64,000 bases of DNA from a virus, in IMG/VR virus record IMGVR_UViG_3300010354_000044, positions 32,001-96,000 of that record; one strand, written 5' to 3'. The position numbers and the translations under genes were made by a program. This document shows positions 31,686 to 41,942 of this stretch, piece by piece. The notes under the pieces were generated by a model. That model did no database searches. It was not told the origin of the DNA and saw nothing but the letters and a program-made list of their open reading frames with translations. Within the stretch, counting starts at the first letter, position 1. Every line of letters starts with the position of its first letter.

Positions 31686-32084
31686 ATGTCTATTATCAAA
31701 CAGACTTCTTCAGTAGTCCCGACTATTGAGGAAGCAACTGCCCTAGCATGCACCCTACGGATGCAGGGGATACCCTGCTATGTGGGGAAAGTTGGAACCC
31801 ACTACCGGGTAGACCCGGCTCTTCCCAAGCAGTACAAGAAACGGGCTAGTAAGAGACCTGCCCGGGACTACATTTCCCTCCTAGGAGGGGATGACTGGTG
31901 CCTTAAGGCGCCGACCAAAGTCCCAAAAACGGGAGACTGGGTGGATTGTACCCCCGAAATGGGGGTGGCGGCCTGCCAGGCCGCTTTGGCAGAGAGGGAC
32001 TGGGAGCTAGTCTCCCGGTTAGAGGTAACGTATTGCGGTAAACCCGCAATACGGGCGACCTATAGCAAGGTACGCCCTAAATAA
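31686..32084 (+). CDS. Hypothetical protein
   Basis: AGGAGA RBS after the structured leader. Confidence 0.65.
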   Translation: MSIIKQTSSVVPTIEEATALACTLRMQGIPCYVGKVGTHYRVDPALPKQYKKRASKRPARDYISLLGGDDWCLKAPTKVPKTGDWVDCTPEMGVAACQAALAERDWELVSRLEVTYCGKPAIRATYSKVRPK

Positions 32085-33416: not shown

Positions 33417-36400
33417 ATGGCTATTTTGACCATTCTTACCGTTACCGCTACTATCTCAGCCTCCGCCCCTGGGGCTAAGCCCAAAGCGCGTAAGCGCCCC
33501 AACCGTGCTGCACAAAAAGCACAGCAACGCAGGGCCGCATTCTTACGTCGTAAGCGGCAGTCCCGTAATGGGCGCCGCCCATTCCATGGGGTGCGGTATT
33601 GTAATATTGCTGATAGGCCCAAGGCCCGTCAGCAGAAGTTTTGGGCCCGTGCCCGTAAGCTGGGAGTTGCCAGGGAGGTAGCCCACCTCCTATGGATGGG
33701 CGACGACTTAGGCGCCAGGCGCGTCCTTAAGGAGGCCCGGCGGCGCTACCAAGTAAAGCGTAGCCTTGTGCTGCGCACCCCGGTTGATAGCCGGGGGGAC
33801 GAAGCTTTACAGGCCAGGCCCAGTCTAAAACCCTCCACCGGGAGGGTATTTGAGAGGGGCACTAAAGGGAAACCCCCACGTAACTGGGGGTTGACGAAAA
33901 AGTCCCAGCCAGAGCCTAGCTGGCGGGACTTCCTTGTTAAGGCTAGGGAGGTTCACCGGGACATCCTAGCTGACCTGGTTAGGGTCGTGGGTGGGGAGCC
34001 TACAGACACCGTTGTCTGTATGGCCCAAACCCCTCCTCCCCCTTCCCCCCAAGGGCGGCAGTCTACCCTCCAAAGGGTAAATGGGCTAGGGCTACCGTTT
34101 GAGCTGTCGGAGGACCAGCTCACCGCCCTAGACAAGATGCTGGCGTTCGCAGAGAGCCCGGCCCGTGGAGGTACCTTTACCTTAGAAGGGTACGCGGGTA
34201 CAGGTAAGACTACTTTGCTACCTATTTTCCTACGGTTACTGCCAAGGAATATCCGGGCGGCTACCGCAGTAACCGCGCTCAGTAACAAGGCGGCGCGTGT
34301 ACTGTCTGAGAAGCTACGGGGCCAAGGTTTACGTGTAGAGGCTTCTACCATTCACAAGCTTCTAGGTATTAAGGCTATCAAACAGAATGCAGAGATTCAG
34401 TTTGATAGGGGAGGGAGCTGCACTATCAGCGAAAACTTGCTCGTTATCGTAGACGAGGCGTCTATGCTGGGCGAGGTCTTATGGAACCATATGACTTCCT
34501 ACTTCAAGAGCATTAAGTTCTTATTTACAGGCGACCCAGCTCAGTTACCGCCTGTTAACGAAACTGGGGCTCCGTGTTTTAGCTTGGCTGATGACTATGC
34601 CAAGTTGACTAAGGTCCTTCGGCATGGCGGTCCAGTTCTACGTGAGTCAACGCTAGTCCGTGACCTGGGGCATGGTACTTACCACCCGGCTCAGTCGCTG
34701 AGTGAAGGTAATAACGTCTTCTGTTATCAGCACATTAACTGGTTTAAGGTCATTAGTGGGTTGGTAAGTGACCCTGAGAAGTGGGCCAAATTTACCGATG
34801 ATCCTAACTTCTTTAGGATTGTGGCCTGGCGTAACGCTAGGGTTGCTGAGCTAAATACCTATGTCCGCCAACTATTGCACGTAGGGAAAAAGCTGGAGCG
34901 TTTCATGGTGGGGGACCTTGTCATATTAGACGCCCCGTATGAAGACCTCTTTACAGGGGATGAGTTTTGGGTACGTGCTGTAAATAATGGCAAGGTTGAT
35001 GGCTGGAATTGCCTGGAGATTACCTTGGAACCGGTGCATGATGCAAAGGCTGAAACTATAGTACGAGTGCTTGCTGCGGAGGAAGCAAGCCGGTACAAGC
35101 AAGAGTCAGACCGGTTACGTGAACTGGCAACACAGCATGTTATTCCTTGGGCGGAGTACTGGGCGTTGCAAGAATTATTCGCAGGGCTCAGTTATGGCTA
35201 TGCTATGACAGTCCACAAGTCTCAAGGGTCTACGTTTCGTAACGTTCTGGTGGACTATAGCGACATCAAGTTATGTAGGGGTCTTGAGCTTAATAAGCTT
35301 ATCTACGTAGCTATAAGTCGTGCGTCTAAGAACGTCATTATGAACGTAGGCACGAGTCCCATTTATGAGCGGGTGAAACCTGCCGGGGAAATTGATACAG
35401 GACCGCCGGAAATACCAGAACCCCCGGTGGTGAATGCCCAGGAGCCTGTGGTAGAGGAGGCCCCGCCTACCTTGCCAGAGGAAGAGTCTGTTGCTGAGGT
35501 AGGCGCGAGCGTCTCTATTGCTGTTGCTCCACAAGAGCCGGCAGTAGAGGAAACTCAGGCTGCGCCTATTAACACAGGGCAGCCTGTGACGGAAACAACC
35601 ACGAAGGAGGAAACTATGTGGTTTGTAGAGATTGACGTAGCGGAACTCACGTTCTTTGCTACAAAGACCAATCATGCGGGTACATTCCCCGTCAACGGTC
35701 TAGAAGTCTTTAAGAAGGGCTTGCTAGGCAAGGGGTATAAGCTTGTGGAAACGCAAGTAGGCCCCGAAGGGGAGGAGCTTAAGCTCGTCTACGCTAAGCA
35801 GCCGCCTACGGCGCTTGGTGGAGAACGAGCCCCGGCTGACCCGCCTGACCAGCCGTTTGCTTCTGGCAACGTAGCCCAGTTCAAGCAGACGGTGCTGAAC
35901 TTTATTGCTCAGCGACTCGGGAAGCTGCACCAGCAGTATCCCGAGTCTGGTATGCGGGAGTTGATCGTCCGCATGACAGAGGCGATTAACTACAGCCCGC
36001 GGGATGCCTTCTTCGCCGCTCCGCTCAGTGACATGCTAAGTATGTGGGTATTTGAGGCGACCCACTCTAAGGAGCTTGGTAACCGGCCTATTCCGGTTAT
36101 TGAGAAGGAGGCTTACTACCTCTCTGGTAAGTGCCTCACTGGGCGCCCGTCGCTGATCGGAGACTTGGACCTTCTGTTGAGCCGCCAACGGCTTGACATT
36201 GAAGGCGATAGTTACCGCCTGCGGTATCCCATTGAGCAGGTAGAGGCGGCGATACTGGACGCTGAGGGCCGGGATCTCTATGAGGGTTACCGGGTTATCC
36301 TCAGCGAGGGTATCAAAAGCCACGCTGTCCTCAATGGTAACTTCCCCCACCTAGGGGTTGAAGTTGAGGATATGGCGGCAGCGCTGACTGTCCACCAGCT

Positions 36401-39400
36401 AGCGCCCAGTGCCTTTAGCTATGGCCTGCCTATCGTCAAGGCTGTGCTTGCAGAGCACCTGGCCGAGGTGCTTTGTCAACTTGGCTATAGCGAGGCTGTA
36501 GCAGGGATGGTAAGCATCCCTGCTGGGTGGAATCTGCCTTGCCCGCAGATGACTGTCGCTAAGCTCAAGAATATGCTTGAGTACATTAGCGACGTGTTCT
36601 CTTCTTTTGGTATCAAGGATTACGAGTATATCTCGTTGAGTCCTGATGCCACGGAGGAGAAGTTCACCGTGTACATCTGCGGCATTGAATTTGCCGTGGA
36701 TGCTCAAGGTGTAACCTTGGTTGACGCGCTGAATCAGAAGGCCATATACGCCACGTATATGGCCCTTCCTATTTGCCATAGAAGCATCCGGGAGGATGAA
36801 GGCGCTTTGATGAGCCCTCACGCGGTCTTCGCCTATATGCTAGCTGAGGTTGTCTTGCCTCTGCTAGTTCGGGTAGACCGTGATAGCTACCGGAATAGGC
36901 TGGTAGGTAGCAATGTCATGCAAACCTACTTCCGAGTAGCTGGGGCGGTAAACACGTATCTTCGTAATTACGTGTCTATTGACCTCCGTTCAGCTACCAT
37001 CGGTGAGCTAGACGACGCAGCAGAAGCCCGCAACCGGGGTGTCGTGGCAGTAGCCTTGAACTACCCCCGCTCCCTATACCGGGATGCTCTGCCTTCAGAG
37101 GTCAAGTCTGGCAATGGATTCTCCATGCTTAACGTAGGCCTTATGAAGGGAAACATCTACGTTGGGGGTGGCAAGGCTATGCCTTCTGAGCTCAGCGTAG
37201 AGGAACGGCAGAACCTAATCCTTGAGCGCGCTGCGCTTAAGACTTTGGGTTACGCTAACACTCAAGTAGTCCACAAGCGGATGCTTGAGCTCGGCTTCTG
37301 CCAAGAGCCGTTCGGGCGGATGACTGTGGTATCGCAGGACATCCATGGCATTAACTTCACAGGTCAGAAAGAAGCTGTGAAGGACTTCTGGGAAAGCCAG
37401 GGCGTCGTAGATGTCATGGAGGTGGCTGCAATCCTAGGCTGCAGAGCAGACTGGACGGAGATCGCGCGAGAAACTTTCGTCGCGTTGTCCAATAAGGGCG
37501 CTAAGCAGCTCAAGCGGACGGCCAACTTCTACCACAATGGCTGTATCTTCATTAGCCAGGCGGTGCAGGCGGCTCAGACCAACGGGGTCTTCAATGAAAT
37601 CAAGGCACTGGCTGTTAAGGCAATTATTGCCAACAGTGCTTTATTCGGTGGCCCTGGTATGGTTTGGGCTAACAAGCAGAAGATTCAGGACATGGGCATC
37701 CGGTACCGCACCGGTGGCCAGGTCTATGAATTCAGCTCCGAGAGTCAGCTGTACTGCGAAGGCTTCGCTTATGAAGCTCAGCATTATAACGAGCACTCCG
37801 GCTGGAACAGCGTGGAGCCTGTAGACCTCCATGTTGTAGAAGGCCGGCCCTTCGGCTTGCTCATCAAGCACGACGGGTACGAGGCAAACATCTCTGCAGA
37901 GCAGAGTGGCCAGGTCACTAAGATCATGTGGCGCTGGGTCACGAAGTTCAATGCCGAGGTGATGGAACTCCGGCTCATCTATGATAAGCGGGAGTATGGC
38001 GCCTTTAAGATCCGTAATGGCTACAAGGGCCTAGTTGCCTTCGTTGAGCCTGAACTGATCGGCAAGGGTGCTGACCTGGTTATCTTCGGGGATGCCAATA
38101 AAACCATGGACATTCTCTACTCCCGCCTACGGGAGGCCGCAGAGAGCTTCGTCCGGGTGCCCCGTGGAACTACCGTTACCCTTAACGGTAAGGACTATGA
38201 TCTCCGCGAGCTGCTGCGTTCATTGAACCAGCAGGCTGGTCCGGCCATGGGTATGGCTATTGAAGACTATGACAGGGATGATCGCCTGTTCATTGACTTC
38301 AAGCTGTTGGCTAAAGGCGCTTACGACATTGTAGGCGAGCTCTTTGAAGCTATCTTTGGCCAGTCCCACTGGTTCCGTTTTGATGGGCCCGACCTGGTCA
38401 AGTTCACGGCCCAGTATTACGGAGCCAAAGCGGAAGCCAACGAAGGCTGGCGTAAGCTGGTTCCTGCTGAGCTTAAGGGTCTAGGCTACCCGAACGCCGT
38501 CGGTTTTACCGATGGTAAAGTAAATGACCCGCATAGCAATGTGCTGGTTGTTGAAGAGGGTGTCGTGCACCACCGTTCCTGGGTCTATGCCGCTAAAGAC
38601 GGTATTGACCTGTATGTTCCGATTAAGCCGGAATATACCACCGTCAGCCAGAACGTGAACTATGCACCTTTGGCTCTCGGCCCTATTGTAGACCCCAGTA
38701 TCCCGACTGAGGTGGCCCGGGAGCTCATCCATGCTGGTGAGGCCAATCGGACCAAGTACACGCTTCTGCATATTTTGCGGAAGCATAGCCTGGGTCCTGT
38801 GGCGTTCACGATGGGTGGCGTTGAAGTGCAGACCGTAACTCTGGCTAGCACGGATACGTTTGCTGGCTTCTTTGGTGAGCATACCCAGATGCTTCAGCAC
38901 AAACGGGCCCTCAGCCGCACTAGTTTTGTACGCGCACTCTGCAACCTATTGCAGACTAAAGTGCTGTGCGTGGAAACTAGTAGATGGACCGAGAGTGGTA
39001 GGGTGATGGCTAACATTTACCTACCTCTGTTGTCCAGCTTTATCATCGGCTCGCTGGATGACCATGCCGATGAGAGCAGCCTCGCGGGTAATGCCTTCAT
39101 GTTCTTTGACATGTGGGCCGCGGGTGAATCGCTCAGTAGCCCAGCCATGGTCAAGATTGCAACTACCATAAGCAATCTGATCAGCAAGCTCTGCGACGGT
39201 AATCGTATGCAGAAGCAGCTGACCTATGGTCCTACCGCTGTAGGTGCGAAGTTGGGTGCATTGCCCATTATCCCCACTGGGGAGCTATGGGTGCTGCGTG
39301 GTGGCGAAGTGCATCGTCGCTTGAAAGTGCGCTTTGGCGATGCCATTAACAATGGCTACGTCATGATGGTGCGTGCGCCTATGACCCGTTCTTGCATCTG

Positions 39401-41942
39401 CAAACTGCGGGTTGTAGACGCTGAGCAGCGTGGGTTTGTACTAAACGGAGTGATGATGTATACATCTCCCTTCGGTCAGTACTTTAATCTAGGTGACTTT
39501 GACGGCGATGGTGTCTTTACCTATGACATCACTAAGTACGTCAACGCTGGGCTCATCAAGCAAGACTCCTACGAGTCTATGCTGGAGTTCCAGAAGTCCC
39601 TGCTCGGGTATGACATGATGTCCCCTGAGTTCTGGGGTTCTGGCGCCCCTGCTCAGTATTATGCAGACCACTATGACATTCCTAGCTACGCTGCTCTGCA
39701 GAAGAAGCTGGGTATGAAGTGTCTGGATAGCGAAGGGCGTTTGATGAACCCTGAGAAGGCCCATGTCTTTAACCGAAAAGCGTTTGAGCTAAGGCAGACC
39801 GGGGCATATGAACAGCAGACCCGGTATGTCTCTTCTTCTTATGGAGTAGAGTACTTTGCTCAGGTCTTTGCTGAGATCTGCCGGGCTATGGGCTTTAAAG
39901 ACTTCATGTGGCTGGCTGACCTAGCGCCGCAGCTGCAGTCCTTGTATGAGGTCGCCCTGGGTGGATACGACAACAACATGTTGTATGTCGCCTTTGGCCT
40001 TATGGACCGAGCCTATAACGGTATGAAGCATACGCCGCACTGGCTGAAGATTGTAGATGAAGATATCTACGATCGCTTCGTTACCGGCAAGACTCATTAC
40101 TACCGGCCTACGGCGTTTCTGAAGGATACTGAGTATACAGCCTTCACCGGGCTGCCCTTTACTGAGGTTCTTCCTTACATGCAGACCCTAGGCTTCTGCT
40201 GGAAGGATGGTAAGCGGGATGATGAGGCTATCCATGGCTTCATCAATGCCGCTATGCTCGCAGGGCTTGCTAAGGTTGCCCGAAAGCTTCCTAAGCCTGA
40301 AGACAGCACTAGCCCGGCTGCGATCGTAGACCAGCTGTTTGAAGATATGGTCGCTGTCTACGGGCGTGACTTTGCTACGGCTGTTCATATGGCGCAGATT
40401 ATCTGCGACACAAGCCGTAATAAAGATAATCAGCGGGGTGGTCAACTGTGCCGGCTTGTTCATGAGCACATGATTGAGCGTTCAGCCGTTGCGCTATTGT
40501 TCAAGCTCATCATGGATGCAAAGCAGCGTATTAACGCGCCCACGCCCGAGCTTAATATTAACGATGTCATTGCTTTGACTCGTTATATTGAGCTTGCTGA
40601 TGTCCTCTCTGAACAGGATGAGGAGTTCCTTGATGTACCTAGTACATCTGGGGAAGCTGCGGCAGAGCCTGAAGATGATAATCAAGGTGATGATGATGAA
40701 GGGGGCATTGCTGTGCCGGAGCCTACTCCGGATAAGCCCGGCCCTGCACCAGGAGCTGCTGAGCCCATTGAGGAGAGCCCTGCTGGTATTGTTCAAGAAG
40801 ATGCAGGATCTTGTATCGTACAAGATCCAGCTACTGTGGAGGTAAAATCCATGTACGTGCAGAACTGGTTCTCAAATATGCTCCCATTAGAAGTCCCAAT
40901 TAAGACTGACTTTGGGACCTTTCAAACGGTAGAGAACTACTACCAGGCTATGAAAACCCTAGACTTGGAGCAAAGGAAAATTATAGCTGAGCTATCTCCC
41001 CACGCTAGTAAGCGTTATGGTCGGCGTAAAATTCAATTACGCTCTGACTGGGAGCAGATCAAGCTAGCTGTTATGGAGGAAGCTCTTCGCAAGAAATTCG
41101 CTCCTGGGACTAAAGCCCTTGAGAGATTACTTGCAGAAAAAGGTGAGATAGTTGAATGGAATAACTGGGGTGATACTTACTGGGGGGCTCTTGCTACTTT
41201 AAGTAATGACGGAACAGTTATTCCTGTTGAGCCTCGTAAAGGCTGTAACCATCTTGGGCGTTTGCTCATGGCCGTTAGAGACGAACATTTAGCGGAGAAT
41301 AAAGTGACCGGAATATTTGACGTGCCCGCGCAGGTGCTGGTTAATCCAGTTAACTGCGGCGGTACCTGGGGCGGAGCTCTTTCCAAAGGGTTCATAGACC
41401 GATACCCAGAAAATACAGCCGCCCTCAAAGTGGCCTCTGAAGCCGGGTCCGTTAAGATAGGGCAGGTGTTAGTGACTGAGGAAGGGGGTAAGTTCATTGT
41501 GAACTTACCTACTAAGCTGGATGCTAACATCCCCAGCCGGCTCGTTGACATAGAAGCTGGTTTATACGCCTTACTAGCCTGGGCTCTGGTTAATAAGCCC
41601 AAATCCATTGCCATACCCGCCCTAGGGTGTGGCCTCGGTGGGCTTAAGTGGGAGGATGTGCTCCCAGTGATTAAACAGGTAGCCACGCTTATGGGTAACC
41701 ATGGTATTGTGGTTTACCTGTTTAACGACCGTGCCGAGCTAGTCACGGTTGACGGAGTTCCTGTCCAGTACGAGGAAGAAATCGTAGAGGAAGAGGTAGT
41801 AGAGCCCCAGCGTCCTACTCTTCCTAAGCTACCTACCCTCAAGCCTCCACAGGCTAACGATGAGGACGAGTATGTGGAGTATGTGGAGCAGGACCCCAAC
41901 ATGCCTGAAGCTGAAGTAGGGGGTCTCTTCAATAATCAATAA
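33417..41942 (+). CDS. Multidomain protein: Dda/RecD-like SF1B helicase + single-chain two-barrel RNA polymerase + NADAR + DarG-like macrodomain
   Basis: Helicase: GYAGTGKTT, IVDEASM, GDPAQLPPV, TVHKSQGST, YVAISRA. RNAP: FKIRNGYKG...ADLVIF (38007), VRAP...NLGDFDGD (39495-39509). NADAR: FSN...VENYYQAMK...DWEQIK...WGDTYWG...NHLGRLLM. Macro: VNPVNCGG...NLPTK...IAIPALGCGLGGLKW. ATG at 33417 after AAGGAGG. Confidence 0.85.
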   Translation: MAILTILTVTATISASAPGAKPKARKRPNRAAQKAQQRRAAFLRRKRQSRNGRRPFHGVRYCNIADRPKARQQKFWARARKLGVAREVAHLLWMGDDLGARRVLKEARRRYQVKRSLVLRTPVDSRGDEALQARPSLKPSTGRVFERGTKGKPPRNWGLTKKSQPEPSWRDFLVKAREVHRDILADLVRVVGGEPTDTVVCMAQTPPPPSPQGRQSTLQRVNGLGLPFELSEDQLTALDKMLAFAESPARGGTFTLEGYAGTGKTTLLPIFLRLLPRNIRAATAVTALSNKAARVLSEKLRGQGLRVEASTIHKLLGIKAIKQNAEIQFDRGGSCTISENLLVIVDEASMLGEVLWNHMTSYFKSIKFLFTGDPAQLPPVNETGAPCFSLADDYAKLTKVLRHGGPVLRESTLVRDLGHGTYHPAQSLSEGNNVFCYQHINWFKVISGLVSDPEKWAKFTDDPNFFRIVAWRNARVAELNTYVRQLLHVGKKLERFMVGDLVILDAPYEDLFTGDEFWVRAVNNGKVDGWNCLEITLEPVHDAKAETIVRVLAAEEASRYKQESDRLRELATQHVIPWAEYWALQELFAGLSYGYAMTVHKSQGSTFRNVLVDYSDIKLCRGLELNKLIYVAISRASKNVIMNVGTSPIYERVKPAGEIDTGPPEIPEPPVVNAQEPVVEEAPPTLPEEESVAEVGASVSIAVAPQEPAVEETQAAPINTGQPVTETTTKEETMWFVEIDVAELTFFATKTNHAGTFPVNGLEVFKKGLLGKGYKLVETQVGPEGEELKLVYAKQPPTALGGERAPADPPDQPFASGNVAQFKQTVLNFIAQRLGKLHQQYPESGMRELIVRMTEAINYSPRDAFFAAPLSDMLSMWVFEATHSKELGNRPIPVIEKEAYYLSGKCLTGRPSLIGDLDLLLSRQRLDIEGDSYRLRYPIEQVEAAILDAEGRDLYEGYRVILSEGIKSHAVLNGNFPHLGVEVEDMAAALTVHQLAPSAFSYGLPIVKAVLAEHLAEVLCQLGYSEAVAGMVSIPAGWNLPCPQMTVAKLKNMLEYISDVFSSFGIKDYEYISLSPDATEEKFTVYICGIEFAVDAQGVTLVDALNQKAIYATYMALPICHRSIREDEGALMSPHAVFAYMLAEVVLPLLVRVDRDSYRNRLVGSNVMQTYFRVAGAVNTYLRNYVSIDLRSATIGELDDAAEARNRGVVAVALNYPRSLYRDALPSEVKSGNGFSMLNVGLMKGNIYVGGGKAMPSELSVEERQNLILERAALKTLGYANTQVVHKRMLELGFCQEPFGRMTVVSQDIHGINFTGQKEAVKDFWESQGVVDVMEVAAILGCRADWTEIARETFVALSNKGAKQLKRTANFYHNGCIFISQAVQAAQTNGVFNEIKALAVKAIIANSALFGGPGMVWANKQKIQDMGIRYRTGGQVYEFSSESQLYCEGFAYEAQHYNEHSGWNSVEPVDLHVVEGRPFGLLIKHDGYEANISAEQSGQVTKIMWRWVTKFNAEVMELRLIYDKREYGAFKIRNGYKGLVAFVEPELIGKGADLVIFGDANKTMDILYSRLREAAESFVRVPRGTTVTLNGKDYDLRELLRSLNQQAGPAMGMAIEDYDRDDRLFIDFKLLAKGAYDIVGELFEAIFGQSHWFRFDGPDLVKFTAQYYGAKAEANEGWRKLVPAELKGLGYPNAVGFTDGKVNDPHSNVLVVEEGVVHHRSWVYAAKDGIDLYVPIKPEYTTVSQNVNYAPLALGPIVDPSIPTEVARELIHAGEANRTKYTLLHILRKHSLGPVAFTMGGVEVQTVTLASTDTFAGFFGEHTQMLQHKRALSRTSFVRALCNLLQTKVLCVETSRWTESGRVMANIYLPLLSSFIIGSLDDHADESSLAGNAFMFFDMWAAGESLSSPAMVKIATTISNLISKLCDGNRMQKQLTYGPTAVGAKLGALPIIPTGELWVLRGGEVHRRLKVRFGDAINNGYVMMVRAPMTRSCICKLRVVDAEQRGFVLNGVMMYTSPFGQYFNLGDFDGDGVFTYDITKYVNAGLIKQDSYESMLEFQKSLLGYDMMSPEFWGSGAPAQYYADHYDIPSYAALQKKLGMKCLDSEGRLMNPEKAHVFNRKAFELRQTGAYEQQTRYVSSSYGVEYFAQVFAEICRAMGFKDFMWLADLAPQLQSLYEVALGGYDNNMLYVAFGLMDRAYNGMKHTPHWLKIVDEDIYDRFVTGKTHYYRPTAFLKDTEYTAFTGLPFTEVLPYMQTLGFCWKDGKRDDEAIHGFINAAMLAGLAKVARKLPKPEDSTSPAAIVDQLFEDMVAVYGRDFATAVHMAQIICDTSRNKDNQRGGQLCRLVHEHMIERSAVALLFKLIMDAKQRINAPTPELNINDVIALTRYIELADVLSEQDEEFLDVPSTSGEAAAEPEDDNQGDDDEGGIAVPEPTPDKPGPAPGAAEPIEESPAGIVQEDAGSCIVQDPATVEVKSMYVQNWFSNMLPLEVPIKTDFGTFQTVENYYQAMKTLDLEQRKIIAELSPHASKRYGRRKIQLRSDWEQIKLAVMEEALRKKFAPGTKALERLLAEKGEIVEWNNWGDTYWGALATLSNDGTVIPVEPRKGCNHLGRLLMAVRDEHLAENKVTGIFDVPAQVLVNPVNCGGTWGGALSKGFIDRYPENTAALKVASEAGSVKIGQVLVTEEGGKFIVNLPTKLDANIPSRLVDIEAGLYALLAWALVNKPKSIAIPALGCGLGGLKWEDVLPVIKQVATLMGNHGIVVYLFNDRAELVTVDGVPVQYEEEIVEEEVVEPQRPTLPKLPTLKPPQANDEDEYVEYVEQDPNMPEAEVGGLFNNQ

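Follow-up and report, generated by a model that had tools for sequence, protein, structure and literature searches.

Organization of the polymerase gene and its internal start signals

The stretch analyzed here (the window) comprises 64,000 nucleotides (nt) from an uncultured freshwater phage and corresponds to positions 32,001 to 96,000 of its 172-kb IMG/VR record (IMGVR_UViG_3300010354_000044). On its + strand it carries a continuous open reading frame (ORF) of 2841 codons, predicted to join a Dda-like helicase, a two-barrel RNA polymerase (RNAP), and a NADAR-macro pair of ADP-ribose-removing domains in one protein. Within this gene, at the ends of the two linkers that part these modules, stand two Shine-Dalgarno (SD) sequences, each followed by an in-frame ATG, that may act as internal start sites. 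The signals and the ORF are as follows.

33417..41942, + strand: full-length ORF, 2841 codons with no internal stop; the same continuous ORF is found in the independent assembly L002 and in protein P0173
33403..33410, + strand: primary SD, AAGGAGGG, 6 nt before the ATG at 33417, of the same motif class as internal site 1
35604..35610, + strand: internal SD 1, AAGGAGG, 5 nt before the ATG at 35616
35616..35618, + strand: internal ATG 1, Met734, in frame; the product from here would be 2108 amino acids (aa; polymerase-NADAR-macro)
40838..40843, + strand: internal SD 2, GGAGGT, 7 nt before the ATG at 40851
40851..40853, + strand: internal ATG 2, Met2479, in frame; the product from here would be 363 aa (NADAR-macro)

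The initial annotation had reported in-frame SD-ATG pairs at 35616 and 40851, and their positions, spacing, and frame are confirmed on reading the sequence. Both resemble the gene's own start, with an SD of 6 to 7 nt and a spacing of 5 to 7 nt to the ATG, and Met734 and Met2479 are each the first Met after a 79-residue, Met-free, acidic/proline-rich linker. Predicted tryptic peptides of the full-length protein that span the two joins are EETMWFVEIDVAELTFFATK and SMYVQNWFSNMLPLEVPIK.

Strength of the signals

By exact match the two sites are the best SD-ATG pairs among the 69 internal ATGs of the ORF, and by duplex energy they rank second and third. We defined a genome-wide signal class as AAGGAGG, AGGAGGT, or GGAGGT, followed after 4 to 10 nt by an ATG that opens an ORF of at least 60 aa; the whole 172-kb genome has 15 such sites, 13 of them at ORF beginnings, and the remaining two are the internal sites. 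Most genes of this phage have a weak SD or none, and the internal signals are thus strong ones for this genome. When the codons of each linker are permuted among themselves, an SD of equal or better quality arises at site 1 in 1.6% of trials and at site 2 in 3.3%. A chance origin of the two signals is unlikely.

A compositional coincidence could nonetheless be envisaged, at least for site 1, in which GAG-GAG and GAG-GTN runs follow from the acidic, Val-rich makeup of the linkers and the Met that opens the next folded module stands there by accident; such a coincidence would call for neither a function nor a past as a gene boundary. Synonymous resampling with the peptide held fixed recreates the SD in 28 to 56% of trials, which places the signal in the amino acid sequence and not in codon choice; given the peptides, the SDs are likely by-products, and Glu/Val-rich linkers favor GAGG and GGAG; both points count against the use of these sites as starts. 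SD-like words also occur elsewhere in the linkers (e.g., at aa 680), and strong internal sites are modestly above background, at 2/68 in this gene versus 3/385 in other genes. Set against coincidence are the linker permutation frequencies, the finding that the genome's only two internal signals of the class both fall at joins, and the similar placement, at module edges, of the best internal sites in a distant relative (L005, described below). We therefore regard coincidence as improbable.

Modules and relatives

The modules of the protein, in order, are these.

33417..34103, + strand: N-terminal basic domain, aa 1-229, without a Pfam family, conserved in relatives with and without the helicase
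34104..35378, + strand: superfamily 1 Dda/RecD-like helicase, aa 230-654 (Pfam AAA_30, 77.7 bits; UvrD_C_2, 39.1 bits)
35379..35615, + strand: linker 1, aa 655-733, acidic/proline-rich and Met-free
35616..40613, + strand: small lineage-variable domain (aa 734 to ~820) and two-barrel RNA polymerase (to aa 2399)
40614..40850, + strand: linker 2, aa 2400-2478, partly homologous to the C-terminal tail of the L005 polymerase, with a G+C content at third codon positions (GC3) of 0.32
40863..41285, + strand: NADAR, aa 2483-2623 (Pfam PF08719, 67.6 bits against a cut-off of 35.1)
41340..41669, + strand: Macro, aa 2642-2751 (Pfam PF01661, 41.7 bits against a cut-off of 22)

The helicase is Dda-like, matching PHROG 325 at 1.2e-78, with AAA_30 and UvrD_C_2 both above cut-off. 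The polymerase part matches no Pfam or PHROG family and gave no hit in a sequence-profile search of solved structures; the label RNAP that it had been given in the initial annotation holds, on motifs and on fold likeness to two-barrel polymerases. A DFDGDG motif at aa 2027 and an RxGxKG-type motif near aa 1533 are invariant in 16 homologues, across which the invariant columns are G, D, D, G, D and K..R...K. With a structure model of aa 1481-2400 (predicted local distance difference test score [pLDDT] 75.9), the top Foldseek rows are almost all RNAPs or QDE-1/crAss gp66/AR9, at weak E values of 0.01 to 0.07, and VIA-align matches the largest RNAP subunits at Z 10-11 (e.g., 8xxp_A, 307 residues, root-mean-square deviation [rmsd] 4.9) as well as p97 N-domain barrels (~91 residues, rmsd 1.9-2.0). 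This is the only polymerase gene found in the genome. A model of aa 620-1000 proved too poor (pLDDT 34) to serve as a guide to the domain edge at site 1, and Met734 is placed as a module start by alignment only, at the end of the Met-free linker. At the RNA level, 150-nt windows across the ORF fold much better than dinucleotide shuffles, with a mean z of -2.4 and a minimum of -7.5 near 36567-36716.

An exhaustive HMMER search recovered 47 polymerase homologues, and four lineages besides the window can be aligned. Searches of viral, metagenome, and genome contigs, word-index protein searches, and searches of cultured phages turned up no set of close relatives and together gave only L002 and L007. 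The four alignable lineages are as follows.

L002 (= P0173): 92% identity to the window; same architecture as the window
L005 (P0005, 2686 aa): ~32% identity; helicase fused, no NADAR-macro, an unknown 140-aa C-terminal domain
L003 (P0004, 2230 aa): ~32% identity; no helicase, no NADAR-macro
L007 (1829 aa): 34% identity; no helicase, no NADAR-macro

In L002 (4603-13122), the JGI gene call begins at an internal GTG and gives 2545 aa; the frame is open from an ATG behind GAGGAGGG, which makes the full-length protein 2839 aa long. This longer form was called in another sample as P0173, whose sequence is identical to it.

All lineages have the basic N-terminal domain (aa 25-216), which in L003 and L007 is joined straight to the polymerase without a helicase. 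Since the helicase-polymerase join is shared at ~32% identity and the N-terminal domain meets the polymerase directly in helicase-less relatives, the gene consists of a polymerase to which modules are optionally added, and not of three recently fused genes, with the helicase optional between the N-terminal domain and the polymerase, and NADAR-macro optional at the C terminus. The N-terminal domain is about 200 aa long, carries a TDTVV(C/A)M motif, has no Pfam match, and heads every polymerase gene of the family (window 33417-34103; L003 2571-3530; L005 940-1950; L007 9074-9720); where a helicase is present, it is inserted directly after this domain.

The polymerase C terminus is a docking place for varied accessory modules (L003 9248-10228; L005 8557-8997; L006 3813-5276). 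These are a SLOG/DprA-like gene overlapping the stop in L003, the 140-aa domain of L005, and a weak NADAR-like C terminus in the more distant homologue L006. Further fusions, with AlkB-like and C-terminal helicase modules, are seen in P0170 and P0037.

Site 2 as a former gene boundary

Several comparisons show that site 2 is the remnant of an earlier gene boundary, at which the hairpin, SD, and ATG have stayed intact. NADAR and NADAR-macro proteins also exist in free-standing form, and two free-standing NADAR homologues, P0053 and P0056, start 1 to 2 residues from the position of Met2479; the N termini of two free NADARs of the same subfamily read MTIYTDNWFSN and MTFIKNWFSN, and the sequence at Met2479 reads MYVQNWFSN. 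On the other side of the join, the L005 polymerase ends in ...SCTVQDLRAVKS and a stop codon, and its counterpart in the window is ...SCIVQDPATVEVKS, followed by Met2479. The DNA for the first part of that end peptide is identical between the window and L005 at 17 of 18 nt, over a hairpin:

40806..40828, + strand: perfect 10-bp hairpin with a 3-nt loop and the motif TTGTAYCGTACAA, ending 22 nt before the ATG at 40851

With at most one mismatch, the hairpin core TTGTAYCGTACAA occurs at 7 genome sites against ~0.4 in simulations, a ~17-fold excess, and 4 of the 7 lie within 13 nt of a stop codon. The hairpin may be a gene-end, processing, operator, or promoter element. Its sites lie mostly at a stop codon or just past it. 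Outside the window the core is found in the phage genome (G000) at positions 115897, 171720, 129368, 91430, 162846, and 136046, and in the related phages L005 (8964), L007 (5997), and L003 (14994), and the outer stem is GGA...TCC in the window and GCAA...TTTGC in L005, with pairing retained in both.

The unfused counterpart of site 2 is seen in L003, where the polymerase stop and a SLOG/DprA-like gene overlap by 16 nt and the SD of that gene lies within the last polymerase codons. GC3 is 0.43 in NADAR and 0.32 in linker 2, compared with 0.62 in the polymerase, and among the aligned lineages NADAR-macro is fused only in that of the window and L002. The simplest history is one in which the polymerase gene lost its stop codon and so became fused with a NADAR-macro gene, tightly coupled to it on the downstream side, and in which this happened in the window/L002 lineage alone. 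The alternative offered in the initial annotation, in which both sites are relics of a recent fusion of three genes by stop loss, fits the origin of site 2, given the L005 polymerase end and the starts of the free NADARs, and fails at site 1, where the join is shared at ~32% identity.

Comparison of the window with L002 shows 6 changed codons among the 17 that precede the ATG at 40851; all the changes are non-synonymous, none falls in the hairpin core or the SD, and one of them converts a U-A pair to U-G. Chance sparing of the hairpin core and SD has a probability of C(9,6)/C(17,6) = 0.007, a count made post hoc. Because the peptide changes avoid the hairpin core and the SD, this hints at constraint on the nucleotides rather than on the peptide. 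JGI gene calls P0174 and P0171, on small contigs, were considered as independent free NADAR-macro genes and rejected: L008 is identical to L002 and its gene call begins at an upstream in-frame GTG of a truncated contig, and the L009 gene call starts inside NADAR.

A former boundary could also persist as an inert relic of fusion or cassette insertion that is no longer used, with translating ribosomes and local structure excluding the 30S subunit, so that only the full-length protein matters. Such an account draws on the same history: a gene boundary demonstrably once lay at site 2, only the window/L002 lineage has the fusion, the foreign-looking GC3 of NADAR and linker 2 fits a late acquisition with little time for decay, and L002 is too close to reveal decay. 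Yet the stretch before site 2 changes fast in its peptide and not in its hairpin, SD, or ATG, and a strong SD with an ATG is the normal start signal of this genome. The relic account is also strained by the age of the other join, considered next, and on the whole we think it unlikely, though it is the rival we take most seriously.

Modules might alternatively be parted by proteolysis in the linkers, or the SD-like words might be pause sites for module folding, with no internal initiation in either case. Both sites do end long linkers, and a motif of linker 2 (an acidic run, GGI, and PGPAP) is conserved with L005 and could be a processing site. Pausing, however, would not require an ATG in frame and at canonical spacing, or any correspondence with the starts of free-standing homologues, and SD-induced pausing is itself disputed, which counts against it. 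We consider this explanation very improbable.

Recurrence of site 1 in distant relatives

The helicase-polymerase join is shared with L005 at ~32% identity, and site 1 is therefore no recent fusion. At the end of the same linker L005 has AGGAGG, 8 nt, and GTG, the top of its 158 internal candidates, and its best internal sites (codons 339/340, 774, and 914) are all at module edges, with 339/340 before the helicase and 774 after it. In L003, which has no helicase, the linker ends with TTGAGGTT, 3 nt, and ATG; this 8-mer is the ribosome-binding-site word of the L003 phage, which has 7 copies where 0.83 are expected, and 3 of the 7 stand before other ORF starts. When linker codon permutation is combined over four lineages by Fisher's method, p is ~6e-4, a value to be read with the sites partly chosen post hoc and the linker alignment unstable.

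The join is thus old, and an SD and start stand at the linker end in three lineages, which argues against unused relics at this site. Codons 695-750, which comprise the second half of linker 1 and 17 codons past the ATG, differ from L002 at 1 of 56 positions, against ~30% gene-wide. At both sites the SD and start are identical in L002, which is too close to the window to inform. An 11-mer in linker 1, CTGCGCCTATT, is common to intergenic RNA modules; BLAST found nothing beyond 11-14 nt and Rfam nothing, and we give it no weight.

Probable nested products from one gene

We lean toward the reading that internal initiation is real and that the gene would yield three products: the full-length protein, polymerase-NADAR-macro, and free NADAR-macro. 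It is favored because a strong SD with an ATG is the signal read by 30S subunits and marks gene starts in this genome, because site 2 preserves a gene start, and because site 1 is found again in deeply diverged relatives, a distance over which decay of an unused relic would be expected. Ribosomes would initiate at Met734 and Met2479 as well as at the primary start, so that one ORF would give three nested proteins with a common C terminus, of 2841 aa, 2108 aa (from Met734), and 363 aa (from Met2479), for which the lengths give rough masses of 315, 235, and 41 kDa. Such an arrangement could supply free polymerase and a free ADP-ribose-removing enzyme beside the large fusion; as pure conjecture, it might be in the fused form that the N-terminal domain is required, for instance in packaging or delivery. 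The proposal of nested products from one ORF, made in the initial annotation, is accordingly plausible and gains comparative support from the relatives, with initiation itself predicted from sequence.

Other results pull the opposite way and are set out together here. L007 offers only a weak candidate at site 1. Near-identical patches shared by the window and L002 also lie away from starts (codons 90-158 and 24-58), and the patch at site 1 may reflect recombination. The RNA fold at site 1 has a z of -5, which is not exceptional in the ORF (10 of 112 windows are lower). A scan for sigma-70-like promoters found none near either site, and the join between the N-terminal domain and the helicase in the window has no start. 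The comparison covers five lineages in total, the window included; L002, at 92% identity, tells almost nothing, and with the others the distance is great enough for the linker alignment to change from run to run.

A broader and more tentative suggestion, which we hold to be possible but somewhat doubtful, is that the gene is a "stop-less operon," in which whole gene cassettes, among them the helicase, NADAR-macro, and the other accessory modules of relatives, would dock in frame into the polymerase linkers while keeping their own hairpin, SD, and ATG. Each enzyme would then be made both free and within one large, possibly delivered, polyprotein, and the polymerase C terminus would be an exchange site for anti-defense cargo.

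Mosaicism and neighboring genes

Divergence between the window and L002 is mosaic: the helicase core (aa 300-600) is 48-70% identical, the macro part (aa 2651-2700) is 46% identical, and the rest is ~90-100% identical, with the divergent stretches at window positions 34300-35220 and 41370-41520. This points to module-internal recombination with divergent phages. Two relatives have an Alp7A-like actin gene close to the polymerase gene, at the loci L007 5808-6014 and L002 514-1509, and in L007 it is preceded by repeated GGGCCC-containing iterons, a possible segregation centromere.

Comparison with known systems and significance

Nested in-frame starts are known from T7 4A/4B, lambda C/Nu3, and infB, and in T7 4A/4B and lambda C/Nu3 the long and short forms have distinct roles. 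The gene described here resembles these two phage examples in that one ORF would give a long and an N-terminally shortened form through an internal SD and ATG; they differ in having a single internal start in small genes, and are not known to involve an RNA polymerase, ADP-ribose hydrolases, or a traceable stop-loss fusion.

Closer in layout are bacterial examples. In Escherichia coli arcB, translation from an internal start placed exactly on a domain border produces a free domain, and the internal product of E. coli rpnE is equivalent to an independent gene (Meydan et al., bioRxiv 10.1101/520783). As in these genes, an in-frame SD and start at a domain border would release a free C-terminal domain, and, as with rpnE, the NADAR-macro product has an independent-gene equivalent. 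Unlike arcB and rpnE, for which initiation was shown by retapamulin-assisted ribosome profiling (Ribo-RET) and Western blots, the present case is drawn from sequence alone, and it concerns two nested starts in a 2841-codon phage gene. Nested in-frame starts at domain borders are thus already established, and this is a new case.

The placement of a two-barrel polymerase in a very large, multi-module phage protein is shared with the crAss-like phage phi14:2 gp66 (PDB 6VR4) and with the tape-measure-fused RNAP of P23-45 (bioRxiv 10.1101/2022.12.01.518664). The Foldseek entries for these giant virion RNAP fusions were matched at E ~0.02 only, and a profile search detected no sequence-level relationship to them. 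In P23-45 a second polymerase is encoded by its own gene, whereas the present genome yielded a single polymerase gene. Orphan phage NADAR and DarG-like antitoxin genes have been described, and the NADAR and macro enzymes studied reverse DNA ADP-ribosylation (PMC11825919, PMC11543638); the present NADAR and macro domains are likewise phage borne, but are fused in frame to a polymerase and are predicted from their sequence.

The particular value of this locus is the combination of a traceable stop-loss fusion with two starts in one giant polymerase gene. It gives an unusually clear picture of how such a fusion may originate, in which the upstream member of a tightly coupled gene pair loses its stop and the start signals of the downstream member survive, and the relatives display the unfused state as well as other cargo at this position. 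If the starts are used, two proteins, a free RNA polymerase and a free NADAR-macro enzyme, are absent from current annotation of this phage group, and the proportions of polymerase, helicase, and ADP-ribose hydrolase would be determined by translation instead of being held at 1:1:1. For phage defense, the distinction would bear on whether an enzyme of the anti-DarT type works as a free protein or while attached to the polymerase.

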